In this document: positions 245 to 5,205 of the stretch, one piece after another | Position numbering within the stretch: the first letter of the stretch is position 1 | How the letters are laid out: each line of letters opens with the position of its first letter | Source of the DNA: a virus | Reading direction: 5' to 3' (one strand) | Virus genome (UHGV): UHGV-0105960 | DNA: 10,683 bases | Made by a program: the position numbers and the translations under genes | Notes under the pieces: model-generated | What the model was told of the DNA's origin: nothing | The model's database searches: none | What the model saw: the letters and a program-made list of their open reading frames with translations, nothing else

Positions 245-1477
245 TTATCCTTTGCGGTTAGACCAGAAGTCGGCGTTTTGTTTGTTCAGGGAAGCGATGC
301 TGGTCATGCCCATATTTGGACGTTGTGCATCGCCCGTGGTGCTGCGGGTGTTTCGCCCTTTGGCAATCTCAGACACGGCGTTAAACGCCATATCGACCGA
401 TTGCTTGGGCAATTTGCGGATATCTGCATCACCGACAACCTGGCGAACCAGTGTTTTGTCAGCGGCGGACAGCACATCACGTTTGAACGCGGTCGGTTTC
501 ACCTTACGGCTCAGATCGATACCCGGAACGATAACTTCGGCACGATAAGCAGCGTCACCGGTAATCGTGGTTTCCTCTTCGTCGTCCTCACCGTCGCCGG
601 TAGGGTCTTTGTTATCTTTGCCGTCAGGCTTATCGTCGTTATCGCCCGTTGCAGTACCTTCCAGCTTAGCCAGCAGGGCTTTGAGCAAGGTTTTGATATC
701 GTCCTCGCCGTCGCCGGTTGGCTCTCCGCCCATTTCCGGCTTTTTGTCCGGCAATGGTTGCTGCGGTGAAAGGTTAATGTTGAGGTTAACGCCGCTCGGC
801 AGATCCCCTTCGTCACCCGTTACCGCCGCTGGCGCAGAGTCCAGCAGTTCGTTCATGGTGTCAGCGTCACCCGTTTTGATGGCCGTGCGCATGCGGGTCC
901 ACCAGCTTTTCTTTTGATTTGCCATTGTGTCTCTGTCTCCAATTGCACAACGATTTCCGGCTCTGCCTTTAGGGACAAGAGCCACATGGTTTCCGGTGAT
1001 ATCGACCTGCTCGGCTTTTCCGGGTTCGGTCTGCTCGTACTCAGCGTCATAGCCGCACGACACTTCGCGCAGACCATCTTCGATCAGCTGAATGGCGCTT
1101 TCGTCTTTGACGATAAGGTCAGCCAGCATCCAATCAGACTGATCACCTGTCCCGCGCCGAACGTTCTGAAGATGCCCGACCGCAAGCTCTTTCCAGTTCT
1201 CGGGGTTGACCAGCCGCACATTCCCGTTTTCATCTTCAGGATGCAGGATCGTGATGCTCATCCCTTCGAATGAGGCGAGCGTGGCCGGATGGAATACCTG
1301 CTCAGGAGAACGCGTGACGACTATTTCACCGAACTTATCGGGTTTCAGTTTTGGCAGGTCATCAGCACCATAGAGCTGCTTACCTGTTCGTCCTATCGGC
1401 ACGTCTTTGCACAGCAACGAGCCGTCAGCCAGCTGATAGCGGGTTTCCCCCAGCCGGGTATTGAAAAAATATTTCAT
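245..1477 (-). CDS. Phage head scaffold-like/prohead-associated protein (resembles DUF2213-type proteins found after Mu-F-like genes) with an acidic low-complexity centre
   Basis: 410-aa ORF, ATG at 1477 (MKYFF...). It sits immediately after the head morphogenesis gene. The centre carries Asp/Glu/Gly-rich repeats (PTGDGEDD twice). Family recalled, not searched. Confidence 0.7.
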   Translation of the reverse strand: MKYFFNTRLGETRYQLADGSLLCKDVPIGRTGKQLYGADDLPKLKPDKFGEIVVTRSPEQVFHPATLASFEGMSITILHPEDENGNVRLVNPENWKELAVGHLQNVRRGTGDQSDWMLADLIVKDESAIQLIEDGLREVSCGYDAEYEQTEPGKAEQVDITGNHVALVPKGRAGNRCAIGDRDTMANQKKSWWTRMRTAIKTGDADTMNELLDSAPAAVTGDEGDLPSGVNLNINLSPQQPLPDKKPEMGGEPTGDGEDDIKTLLKALLAKLEGTATGDNDDKPDGKDNKDPTGDGEDDEEETTITGDAAYRAEVIVPGIDLSRKVKPTAFKRDVLSAADKTLVRQVVGDADIRKLPKQSVDMAFNAVSEIAKGRNTRSTTGDAQRPNMGMTSIASLNKQNADFWSNRKG

Positions 1478-1491
1478 GGTTTACCTGCGAT

Positions 1492-2265
1492 TCAGGCGAG
1501 ATAAGAATGAGGGTTGGGGAAGACGATTTCTTTGTAACAGCGGCAGTTCGGGAGCTCGCCAGCGTGACCGGTCATGCCGTCAAGCGTTGGAGGTCGGCCC
1601 CATTCGACAAACTTCCCTTCCATCTCTCGATGAGAATGCCGGACGTCGCCATCTTCGGCTGTACGCCAGATATAACCATTCGAGCCGATTGACAGCGCAC
1701 GCGCCTGATCCAGTGCACCGGTTGCGCGCCCAAGCTCAGTCCGGGCGATAAGGTTCGCTCGTGAGCGTGACACGTCACCGGAAGCAGCTATCTCTTTCGC
1801 GAATGGCTCAGCGCGGCCACCAGTTACTACAGCCTCGATGGCCTTGTTCTGAATGTCATACACCCGATCGGCGGCCTCAAGAGGCAGAGATTTGATGTAC
1901 TTAATTTGCTCGGCGACGATGGATTTCATCACCTGGCCTACCGGGGCGCGGTCGACCATGTTGCGTAGTTCTGCGCTGATGTTCCGACTGTGCTGACGCC
2001 ACTGCTTTTCATTCTGGCGCGCAATGTCGGCGGTGAAGCTCTCAGCAACCTTAGTCGCCCAGGGGGTGATGATTTCGCTGTAGCGCTCCAGCGCATCCAT
2101 TATTTCGGTGACGCTATCGTTTGAACCATCGTAGCGACCATTTACGATATCCCCGACCGCCCGCGCTATCTGCCGTAGGCTCGTTCGATATCGGATCTCC
2201 GCCTGGCGGCTCTGGCGGTTTGTCGCCAAGTTCGCCGATGCCTGGCGGCGCTTCGTCTTCGGCAT
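1492..2265 (-). CDS. Phage head morphogenesis protein (Mu gpF / SPP1 gp7 family-like)
   Basis: 257-aa ORF with true ATG at 2265 and GAGGA upstream; Cys/His-containing C-terminal region (HSHREMEGKF...PNCRCYKEIVFP). Position directly after the portal gene is typical. The first 152 nt overlap the portal 3' end in another frame; an alternative ATG at 2100 would give 202 aa. Confidence 0.8.
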   Translation of the reverse strand: MPKTKRRQASANLATNRQSRQAEIRYRTSLRQIARAVGDIVNGRYDGSNDSVTEIMDALERYSEIITPWATKVAESFTADIARQNEKQWRQHSRNISAELRNMVDRAPVGQVMKSIVAEQIKYIKSLPLEAADRVYDIQNKAIEAVVTGGRAEPFAKEIAASGDVSRSRANLIARTELGRATGALDQARALSIGSNGYIWRTAEDGDVRHSHREMEGKFVEWGRPPTLDGMTGHAGELPNCRCYKEIVFPNPHSYLA

Positions 2266-3583
2266 TCTCGATATCCTCGTCGGTAATGGATGCCCCGATG
2301 CCGGTGACGTCAGAGTTTTCGCGCAGGTCGGTCATCGCCGCCTTACGCGTCATCAATCCGTCGCCCAGCGCGGTACTGATCGCGTTGGTGGTGTTTACGG
2401 CCACCGTTGATCGGTCAACGTCTGACATTTGCCATAGCGGGTTAAACTCAAACGTGAAATCGTCCGGCAGCGGCTTTCCGAGTTCCGAGCGGTGCATAAT
2501 GTCCAGTATCCGGCGCATCGGCAGTCGTAAGCGGCGCTCCTGCAATGAGCTCACCCGGTCGTAATAGTTGGCGAGGTCTGCATCACCAGTAGAGAAGCCT
2601 TTCGGGGATTGACCGAACAGGCGTACCAGCGGGATACCAACGGCACCGCTGATCTGCTCAGCAAACTGCGAAAGAATGTCATCCAGACCACTAAAGCTGT
2701 ACTGGTGGGTTTCGAACTTATCCCGCGAGTCCATGAGCGTCATACCTTCATTGCTCTGGAACTGGCGGATCAGGTCGATGTTCTTCAGCAACGCTTCGAA
2801 CGCCGGGCCTCCAAGCGCGATAAGCTCGCGCAACTTCTCCACGCTATAGGTACGCAGATGCGCTTTATAGACCAGCTGCGCCGCGCCGACAGTAGCGCTA
2901 TCGAACGCAGTAAGCCGATCCCAGATACGCTCTACAACCGACATTCCCCATTCGTTTTCGGTCATCTTCTGCTGGAATGGCAGCGTGACGCCATCAAAGC
3001 GGATCAGGCGGCTGTGATGGATGCGCCAGGCCGGAATGCCCGTTGCGGTGGTCACCACGTCGTAAAACTCAGGCTTGCCGAGGTCCGGCCCCATCTCTTT
3101 AATGCGGCGTGTCAGCACCGGGTTAATCATCCAGCGGTCGAGCGGGAGAATGCCCTTAAACTTGCCCTCGCCAATGGTTTCGAGTCGCAGCGGGGTCATT
3201 GGTGCTTGCCCCTCGATCATGATGAAGCCGACCGCGCCGCCGTAGAGGCGCGACCATTTCAGCACGTCGTTCAGCGCATCCCAGATCTGCAACTCATCCA
3301 GTTGCGCTTCGAGGGTGCCACGGTCTTTGGCGTCAATCTCCGAAGTGATGCGAATGCCCTTTCGGGTCATATCGTCCGGGATAGCGTCGACCGCTTCACC
3401 GATAACCCACGAACCGCGATATGACCATTCCACCAGCATGCGGTTGCGGCTGGTGAAGTTCGCCCGGTAGGTCGATGCTGAATGCTGGTTAGGCGTCTGC
3501 ATCCCAACGCGGGCGACGAAGTTCTCGTAGCCGTCAGCGGTGGCCTGTGCCGTTCGCTGAGAGGATTGCTTGTTTCGTGCCAT
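2114..3583 (-). CDS. Phage portal protein
   Basis: 489-aa ORF, ATG at 3583 with GGGAGA Shine-Dalgarno; located between the large terminase and the head morphogenesis gene; size typical of portals; Pro/Gly-rich acidic C-terminal tail. Confidence 0.85.
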   Translation of the reverse strand: MARNKQSSQRTAQATADGYENFVARVGMQTPNQHSASTYRANFTSRNRMLVEWSYRGSWVIGEAVDAIPDDMTRKGIRITSEIDAKDRGTLEAQLDELQIWDALNDVLKWSRLYGGAVGFIMIEGQAPMTPLRLETIGEGKFKGILPLDRWMINPVLTRRIKEMGPDLGKPEFYDVVTTATGIPAWRIHHSRLIRFDGVTLPFQQKMTENEWGMSVVERIWDRLTAFDSATVGAAQLVYKAHLRTYSVEKLRELIALGGPAFEALLKNIDLIRQFQSNEGMTLMDSRDKFETHQYSFSGLDDILSQFAEQISGAVGIPLVRLFGQSPKGFSTGDADLANYYDRVSSLQERRLRLPMRRILDIMHRSELGKPLPDDFTFEFNPLWQMSDVDRSTVAVNTTNAISTALGDGLMTRKAAMTDLRENSDVTGIGASITDEDIENAEDEAPPGIGELGDKPPEPPGGDPISNEPTADSAGGRGYRKWSLRWFKR

Positions 3584-3621
3584 CAGGCCTGTCTCCCTAG
3601 CAGCTCCCAGATGTTCAGGGC

Positions 3622-5205
3622 TTAATTCATTGGCGCGTAGCTGATCATCACCGAGTCGGCGAGGTTCGGCGACTTGGTGCCATCAGGCTGTTTATCAACA
3701 ACGATTTTCCCCACGCCATTAATGGAGTAGGTCGGCTGCGACAGCTCAATGATGAGTTTGTCTTTGCTCGCCATGGCGCTGCTGATTGAGATGATTTCGT
3801 CCGGGTTGTAGGCCATGCCCTCAACCACGGCGCGATAGGTGTTCTGGAAAAGCTTGCGTAGCCACCACCAGCTCTGGGCTTTGGCGTTGGCGAAGAAGTC
3901 CTTGTTCAGGCGTGCGGCCTGTCCGTTGTCCCCGCGCACCGCTTCATCGTCCGGATCAAATACCGCGCCGCTACCACGAAACGGTGTGGCGAGTATTGAC
4001 GGTCGGCGCGCTGCGTAACGCAGTTCGTTGATGGCGCGCGCATCGCCGCGAACGCCAGCACCCAGGCCGTCCTCGTCGAAGCGAAACTCTTCGAGGTTGT
4101 CCTGTTCGCAAAAGCCGAAGACCTTCTCAACAGACTGGTAAATGTCGCTGCCAACGCCGGACCATTCACGCACGTTCTCCAGGAGGAAGCCGTGACGGGT
4201 CGAAAAGGCGTTTTTGTCCCGGCCTTCGTCGGCGACGTCCATCGCGCCCAGGCGTTTGCCCGTTGGCTGGATGCCCAGCTTAATATGAGCGTCGACGGCA
4301 GCCTGTACCCAGTCGGACGGGATCAGGACGCCTTCCGCAGATGCGCTGTAGTTCAGGTCAAGTTCCTGCGCTACCACCACCGGATTGTCGATTTTCTCGC
4401 ATTCCCTGCGATACCACTCTTCATCCTTGCGCGGGTCATTTCGCCAGTGGAATGTGAATACCGGTATCTTCCCGCCGTGACGCTTCTGCGCGAACGGGTT
4501 CGCCATGCCGTTAACCGAACTCAGGTCGATACGGCAGCGAGTGGTTTGCGACAGCGCCGCATCAATCAGCAGAGGGCGCTGGAGGAATGCGGCCTCATCC
4601 ACCAGGTAGAGCGTGGTACGGTCACCACGACCAATATTATCGCCAGCCTCGCCTTTGATAACGGCACCAGTTTCAGGAAACTCAACACGCATATATGGCG
4701 CGTGCTTCTTCTCGCTCCACGAACCGCGAAACTCTACAGGTAGTGTTTCCACGAACTTGCGCGCCTTCCAGAACAATGCTTTCGGGTCACCAGTGCTGTC
4801 GACGTATTCCTCTTTACGGGAGCCGAAACCGATAACCATTTCTTTGTTGAAGAGACAAAGCGAGCAGGCCAGTCCGATCGCGGTCCAACTGAGCCCCATT
4901 TCACGGGATTTTTCGGTAATACCATTCTCCCGATTACCCCAGCGTTCCATAATCCAGTGGATCCACTCCTCCTGCTTAGGGAATAGTAAAAACGGAATGG
5001 TCACCGGCAGGCCATAATCAATATTACGCGGGTCCGTTGTCATGCCCCAGTCGATGATGAACTGAGCCGGATTGGTTCGGTAAAACTGTTTTAGTGCAGG
5101 CAATATTTCAGGATTCTGGCGAATGCGCTGTAAGCGTTCCATCCGCCATTCAAAAACCATCTGGTAATCAGGATGTTTAAAATCGAAGGGGAATGGTAAC
5201 GGCAT
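3622..5205 (-). CDS. Terminase large subunit (ATPase/nuclease)
   Basis: 527-aa ORF starting 2 nt after the small terminase stop. Deviant Walker A of the terminase type ([10 protein letters not shown], i.e. KSRxxGxS) and Walker B-like LYLVDEAAF; position between small terminase and portal. Confidence 0.9.

Follow-up and report, generated by a model that had tools for sequence, protein, structure and literature searches.

A long out-of-frame overlap between the portal and MuF-like head morphogenesis genes of an enterobacterial prophage family

Overprinted genes, in which two proteins are read from one stretch of DNA in different frames of the same strand, are familiar from phages; Rz/Rz1 of λ, the lysis gene of MS2, and the D/E and A/B/K genes of ϕX174 are examples. 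Here we consider an arrangement of this kind in a stretch of 10,683 nucleotides (nt) from the virus genome UHGV-0105960, the whole of which is called the window below. On the minus strand of the window, the 3' end of a portal gene and the 5' end of a gene for a MuF-like head morphogenesis protein of the SPP1 gp7 family (MuF, for short) share 152 nt, positions 2114 to 2265. As in the known overprinted pairs, the downstream gene has a ribosome-binding site of its own, which lies within the upstream gene, and synonymous variation is suppressed in both frames. In contrast to those pairs, two large structural genes, unrelated to each other, overlap here at their ends by 50 codons each, with no small gene nested inside another, and the overprinted part is a predicted disordered tail that would lie over an older, conserved N-terminus. 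Very probably the overlap is a true one, conserved in evolution, between two late genes that are translated separately and in different frames. Our literature searches found no published description of a portal/MuF overlap; the overlap is apparently undescribed, and it belongs to a known kind, the out-of-frame overlapping genes.

Portal and MuF functions are linked in other phages as well. As the preliminary description of the window had remarked, portal/MuF fusions exist elsewhere: Microbacterium phages of clusters EA3, EA5, EA8 and EB have portal-MuF fusion genes (PMC7302621). The window resembles these phages in that the two functions are adjacent, with the 3' end of the portal segment linked to the 5' end of the MuF segment; the Microbacterium fusions are single open reading frames (ORFs), whereas the window has two ORFs in different frames, with a stop and a start of their own. 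In phage SPP1 the MuF-like protein gp7 binds the portal protein gp6 and enters the procapsid in few copies (PMC6316719). The MuF of the window carries the SPP1 gp7/Phage_Mu_F domain and its gene likewise follows the portal gene, so that by analogy it may bind its portal too. The portal families differ, that of the window being of the Phage_portal_3/HI1409 type, and the SPP1 review (PMC6316719) makes no mention of a long overlap.

The two genes and the MuF start

The portal gene (3583..2114, minus strand) encodes 489 residues and ends at a TAG stop at 2116..2114; codons 440-489 lie in the overlap. Its product belongs to the Phage_portal_3/DUF1073 family, with a Pfam match to PF06381 over residues 55-402 (352.5 bits, E-value 2.7e-105, cut-off 33.8) and an NCBIfam match to TIGR01555, the HI1409 family (244 bits, cut-off 196.25), and the PHROG 146 alignment covers residues 1-488. 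The MuF gene (2265..1492, minus strand) encodes 257 residues at full length, with codons 1-50 in the overlap. Its product matches Phage_Mu_F, PF04233, over residues 137-243 (66.1 bits, 5.7e-18, cut-off 29.6) and TIGR01641 (43.6 bits, cut-off 39.65), and the PHROG 324 alignment covers residues 5-255. By ORF coordinates MuF is read +1 relative to the portal gene, so that the 152-nt segment 2114..2265 (minus strand) is dual-coding, with the portal tail in the portal frame and the MuF N-terminus in the +1 frame. Both ORFs thus stand where the preliminary description had placed them, with 50 codons of each in a 152-nt overlap.

How is MuF translation begun? The ATG at 2265..2263 (minus strand) is the first possible MuF start downstream of an in-frame stop, and a Shine-Dalgarno-like GAGGA (2278..2274, minus strand) stands 8 nt before it. 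Both elements are made of portal codons: GAGGA is built from the codons for D-E-D of a conserved ITDEDI motif, and the ATG takes its AT from a portal Asn codon, AAT, and its G from the following Ala codon. The arrangement GAGGA-N8-ATG, with GTG in Yersinia, is kept in every enterobacterial locus compared, so that what had been noted as a good ATG with a Shine-Dalgarno sequence proves to be conserved. In these loci the portal codon that supplies the start (AAT, GAT or AGT) always ends in T, even though C would be synonymous for the portal.

Public records tell a different story. In the genomes of Salmonella phage SEN34 and Hafnia phage yong1, and in E. coli RefSeq genomes, MuF is annotated from the ATG at 2100..2098 (minus strand), the codon for internal Met56, which many public records mistake for the start and which gives a 202-residue version. 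The record of E. coli phage vB_EcoM-606R2 places the start even further downstream, for 176 residues. If MuF did start at ATG 2100 or later, past the portal stop, there would be only a trivial overlap, or none to speak of, and these annotations are what such a reading has in its favor. We give it hardly any credence. In an alignment of five phages, ATG 2265 is present in all five, but ATG 2100 is replaced by ATT in vB_EcoM-606R2; yong1 has an in-frame stop two codons 5' of ATG 2265. Substitutions upstream of 2100 track the MuF codon phase, and the phase shifts where one gene gives way to the other: the variable columns of the five phages fall at portal codon position 3 in 36 of 49 cases upstream of 2265, at MuF codon position 3 in 19 of 36 within the overlap, and at MuF codon position 3 in 42 of 69 downstream of 2114. 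The PHROG 324 alignment, as noted, begins at residue 5.

The N-terminal residues are, moreover, among the best conserved of the protein. The peptide QAEIRYRTSLR.IARAVGDIV is invariant in the five phages except at one Q/R position, and MuF homologues at 61-70% identity from Arsenophonus, Morganella, Xenorhabdus and Pantoea align through the N-terminus. The conserved motif can be written AExxYRTSLxxIAxxVGDIVNGRYDGSNDS, in which G38, I40, Y45, D46, S48, N49 and S51 are invariant; conservation of residues ~17-55 holds in homologues as far away as 40-50% identity, and residues 22-55 rank among the best conserved across orders. In a species-level tblastn comparison, homology begins at MuF query residue 1-26 in 78 of 80 loci. 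The alignment of homologues had been named beforehand as the means by which a long overlap might be reduced to a trivial one; what it shows is that the MuF residues upstream of ATG 2100 are conserved and that ATG 2100 is not. The comparative data settle most of the question of the start, and we take it to be ATG 2265 rather than ATG 2100. In the translations, the peptide AVGDIVNGR precedes Met56 and the peptide YDGSNDSVTEIMDALER spans it, and the tryptic peptide of the portal tail ends in ...GGDPISNEPTADSAGGR.

A further candidate start is the TTG at codon 13 (2229..2227, minus strand), which has a weak Shine-Dalgarno sequence and would give the 245-residue versions of MuF. Many RefSeq MuF proteins are of this length and cover 95% of the query, metagenome gene calls give 257 residues, and part of the homologues are annotated from an ATG in the column of TTG 2229. 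Short annotation may extend to other phages. In Klebsiella phage Mulock (1801..1957 of its locus) and Burkholderia phage Magia (1801..1852), both annotated by hand, the annotated MuF start has 51-156 nt of MuF homology ahead of it, within the portal gene; in these two phages, too, the MuF gene is probably annotated too short.

Selection on both reading frames

Is the portal tail under selection, or is it simply open? Synonymous variation was compared among 32 enterobacterial MuF sequences, pairwise less than 97% identical, and among the portals of 29 of these, the measure being the fraction of identical-residue pairs with different codons. In MuF this synonymous difference is 0.36 in codons 1-50 versus 0.57 in codons 51-257, the per-column means being 0.38 and 0.56 (Mann-Whitney p = 4e-7). 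In the portal gene it is 0.22 in codons 440-489 versus 0.55 in codons 1-439, and the fall, from 0.55 to 0.32, comes right after ATG 2265, in portal codons 440-452, which are MuF codons 1-12.

A second line of evidence is the avoidance of stop codons. A stop in the portal frame requires a T at the end of one MuF codon and AA, AG or GA at the beginning of the next. At such stop-prone sites within the overlap (MuF codons 1-45), T occurs in one of 15 columns and in one of 289 instances; in the rest of MuF it occurs in 60 of 64 columns, with 378 of 1369 instances ending in T. That these sites do mutate is clear from the 15 overlap columns, in which at least 19 changes between bases other than T have taken place. 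With MuF codons replaced at random by synonymous ones, the probability that the portal frame is open would be ~0.03 for the window sequence. For the enterobacterial sequences taken singly it is 0.01-0.12 in 31 of the 32, and 0.36 in the remaining one, L116. The portal stop nonetheless lies within MuF codons 46-53 in 30 of the 32; that of L116 lies at MuF codon 30. The overlap exceeds chance in the enterobacterial relatives.

The constraint can be followed to single codons. In the 26-protein portal alignment, D472, S473, L484, R485 and W486 are nearly invariant. Residues D472-S473 (2165..2170, minus strand) are kept by way of the MuF codons for Ile33 and Ala34: Ile33 is the rare codon ATA in 31 of 31 Ile codons, although ATA makes up 16% of the synonymous set elsewhere in the gene, and GCG is near-fixed for Ala34 versus 29% elsewhere. 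The C-terminal motif L484-R485-W486-F487 (2123..2134, minus strand) is kept by way of TAC for Tyr45 (32 of 32), GAT for Asp46 (30 of 32) and GGT for Gly47 (30 of 32), for which the usage elsewhere is 62%, 49% and 33%.

One might think instead that the overlap is real and the portal tail a neutral, functionless read-through, its frame open since the conserved MuF sequence offers few stops. The tail is indeed of low complexity, its length varies between clades, and it is predicted with low confidence; openness by chance is expected in the GC-rich Burkholderiales, and the enterobacterial relative L116 stops 20 codons earlier. We regard a neutral tail as improbable all the same. It does not account for the position of the stop in 30 of 32 enterobacterial sequences whose frames would so rarely be open by chance, for the near absence of T-ending codons at stop-prone sites, for the lower variation of MuF synonymous sites inside the overlap than outside, or for the fixation of rare MuF codons (ATA, CTA) exactly where the portal's D-S and L-R-W-F are kept.

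The low complexity of the tail had been pointed out before, and the sequence quoted for it, APPGIGELGDKPPEPPGGDPISNEPTADSAGG, is present in the translation. The tail is rich in proline, glycine and acidic residues and ends in a basic-aromatic RKWSLRWFKR. An AlphaFold2 model of the portal, made with a 26-sequence alignment, has a mean predicted local distance difference test (pLDDT) score of 60.0, with residues 445-489 below 50, and gives weak evidence that the tail of ~50 residues may be disordered. The corresponding MuF model, from a 16-sequence alignment, has a mean pLDDT of 55.5 and a long N-terminal helix, residues 6-44, predicted with low confidence.

Frameshifting, fusion and sequence error

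The preliminary description left three readings of the locus standing: a real overlap, a programmed frameshift that produces a portal-MuF fusion, and a frameshift error in the sequence. The first is strongly supported by the comparisons above, and the other two have not fared well.

In programmed frameshift pairs of the λ G/GT type the slippery heptamer is conserved, and the downstream frame lacks a start of its own. The portal/MuF pair is like G/GT in that two frames overlap at a gene junction of the late operon; unlike G/GT, it has no slippery site and has a conserved Shine-Dalgarno sequence and ATG. MuF lies in the +1 frame of the portal, and a -1 slip could therefore not join the two ORFs. 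A +1 (or -2) ribosomal frameshift within 2114..2283 would be needed, and would yield one fusion protein of ~696 residues. Both frames are open across the stretch, with MuF in the required +1 frame. There is precedent for the product in the fusion genes of Microbacterium phage clusters EA and EB (PMC7302621), the C-terminal end of the PHROG portal family phrog_2662 aligns with MuF residues 26-248, and four database proteins of 655-697 residues fuse this very gene pair.

We nevertheless consider such a frameshift very unlikely. The check for slippery heptamers and homopolymer runs turned up nothing usable: a scan of 2090..2320 found no -1 heptamer of the form X_XXY_YYZ and no homopolymer longer than 4 nt, and there are only three weak AAA_N candidates for a +1 shift, none at a conserved place. 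RNA folds of 2215..2315 and 2090..2290 did not differ from those of shuffled sequences (z = -0.27 and -0.99), so that no significant RNA structure is seen there that might account for the synonymous constraint or couple translation; nor, with no candidate shift site, is there a point relative to which a stimulatory element could be placed. MuF has its own conserved Shine-Dalgarno sequence and start, the constraint on the portal frame and the avoidance of stops persist up to the portal stop, and relatives with a 4-nt ATGA junction cannot make the fusion. As for the four fused database proteins, they are singletons with four different junctions, as indels or a deletion would give. Three of them (P0122, P0124 and P0129) switch frame, one after DSAG, one after GELG and one after AEDEA, and P0132 has a 41-residue deletion; all four are probably indel errors or sporadic mutants. 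A natural portal-MuF fusion gene was also considered for the window and set aside, as there is no single ORF: the portal frame is closed by its stop at 2116..2114, and MuF is read in a different frame, +1.

One of the fused proteins has a further feature. The direct repeat GGATATCG, an 8-mer followed two bases on by A.AATG, occurs on the minus strand of the window at ~2271..2278 and at 2146..2153. The copies lie ~125 nt from each other, the first coding for EDIENA of the portal and the second for GDIVNG of MuF. In P0132 exactly the stretch between the copies is deleted and the genes are fused in frame. We rejected the repeat as a meaningful element, as an 8-mer at that distance is within chance and explains one deletion variant only.

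The third reading is that an assembly or sequencing error has split what is really one gene, or has hidden an earlier portal stop. In its favor, indels are a frequent kind of error, and fused ORFs do turn up in a few database entries. The identical geometry, however, is found in Citrobacter phage Omnitron, SEN34, vB_EcoM-606R2 and yong1, in 338 complete E. coli genomes, and in the best 80 of 445 IMG/VR stretches that encode a relative of the 257-residue MuF. These 80, which are 98-100% identical and match residues 1-257, come from a scan with the MuF protein alone; such close copies rule out a sequencing error and are of no use for measuring divergence. The +1 relation recurs in dozens of other species. 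With the same geometry in hundreds of independent contigs, the comparative data already refute an error, and we assign it a negligible probability.

Distribution, origin and significance of the overlap

How widespread is the overlap? An alignment-based scan, limited to one genome per species, gave 80 loci, from Enterobacterales, Burkholderiales, Pseudomonas, Acinetobacter, Rhizobiales, Desulfovibrionales and others, and both genes were located in 75. A lower bound on each overlap was taken from BLASTP as the position of the portal stop past the first homologous MuF codon, a measure that is independent of the choice of start codon. By this bound the overlap is at least 90 nt in 44 of the 75 loci, 10-89 nt in 12, and below 10 nt in 19; together, then, 56 of 75 have a portal stop 10 nt or more into the MuF homology. 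MuF is in the portal +1 frame in 66 of 75. Long overlaps of 92-167 nt are found in Cupriavidus, Ralstonia and Pandoraea, at ~50% identity, and one Acinetobacter locus has an overlap of 92 nt; for the four genera taken together the identities are ~45-52%. The portal alignments extend to residues 486-489 at ~50% identity.

The loci with little overlap bear on how the arrangement may have arisen. Five of those below 10 nt, from Bosea, a Rhizobiales bacterium, Desulfovibrio and Pseudodesulfovibrio, have an ordinary 4-nt ATGA junction, and the MuF N-terminal motif is also found in relatives of this ATGA type. Since relatives with an overlap of just 4 nt have the motif too, we infer that the MuF N-terminus is the older element, and that the portal tail spread over it, perhaps by loss or shift of the portal stop.

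Some loci depart from the usual pattern. In five Xenorhabdus loci (L100, L103, L104, L106 and L111, ~2850..3110) the portals have a different segment before the tail, ...GIQMLISSYRM..EAE.IMGSVGNGF..., which resembles the portal end of one Pseudodesulfovibrio locus (L157), and the same portals retain the overlapped tail, ...VSN.ST.DS...LRWF. The sequences point to a mosaic exchange just upstream of the overlap. In the loci of Apirhabdus apintestini (L096) and of an Arsenophonus metagenome-assembled genome (L123) the frame offset is 0 and the homology is split or truncated, which suggests decayed prophage copies or assembly indels.

Two separately translated genes would work as follows. Ribosomes on the portal gene would read to the TAG at 2116..2114, adding a tail of ~50 residues that ends in D-S ... 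L-R-W-F-K-R. MuF would be initiated de novo inside the portal gene at ATG 2265, on the GAGGA provided by the portal's ITDEDI codons, and its first 50 codons, with the conserved helix-forming motif AEIRYRTSLRQIARAVGDIV, would be translated from this same stretch in the +1 frame. Initiation within a translated gene, rather than by coupling of termination and reinitiation as at the ATGA junctions of distant relatives, may keep MuF low relative to the 12-copy portal.

Several points weigh against so firm a view of a conserved overlap with two constrained frames. The sequences compared are related by descent, so the counts given above are not counts of independent events. Selection on the portal tail is shown only for the Enterobacterales; in the GC-rich Burkholderiales the probability of an open portal frame is 0.3-0.85, at which the stop-avoidance test is uninformative, and the Acinetobacter values, 0.015-0.125, by which openness by chance is unexpected, are suggestive. 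The MuF start could be TTG 2229 instead of ATG 2265, in which case the overlap would be 116 nt. The structural models, with mean scores of 55.5 and 60.0, are of low confidence and tell little about the role of the tail or of the MuF N-terminus. Finally, the argument from stoichiometry, that MuF may be scarce, is drawn by analogy.

Might the shared DNA do more than encode two proteins? The 150 nt could be a functional module, in which the portal's D-S ... L-R-W-F-K-R docks with or regulates MuF, terminase or the packaged DNA, the partners being locked together genetically and their ratio set. We hold this to be a rather unlikely elaboration. Less likely still is a variant in which a low-level, non-canonical +1 shift would supply the portal ring with a small number of portal-MuF fusion subunits.

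The surroundings of the two genes are those of a late operon in a prophage. The neighbors, by Pfam, are a large terminase, a small terminase and a DUF2213 protein. Over 1400..3700, the portal-MuF part of the window, identity is 98.4% with phage Omnitron and 85-90% with SEN34, vB_EcoM-606R2 and yong1; a 501-nt stretch around the overlap matches three complete E. coli genomes at 100% identity, and 338 of 5426 such genomes contain it. Judged by these identities the window is an E. coli prophage of the SEN34/Omnitron type. The other junction of the portal gene, with the gene for the large terminase (TerL), is altered in the window. The TerL ORF stops at a TAA (3622..3624, minus strand) where E. 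coli S1 and phage SEN34 have TCA, for serine; in the latter two, TerL runs on for another 13 codons (SALNIWELLGRQA), and its TGA stop shares bases with the portal ATG (cTGATGg). The nonsense substitution would thus leave TerL without its last 13 residues, and the usual coupling of TerL stop and portal start is lost.

What follows if the portal and MuF genes are, as we think, truly overlapping and separately translated? The understanding of phage assembly is unchanged by the overlap. The annotation of a very common enterobacterial prophage family is affected: because gene callers and curators shun long overlaps, most public records give a MuF that is 12 to 81 residues short, and one of the protein's best conserved stretches is among the residues lost. 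The locus would be a clean case of overprinting in a tailed phage, with a portal tail lying over an older, conserved N-terminus and with both frames constrained. Changes that are silent in one frame and disable the other would provide a simple experimental handle.

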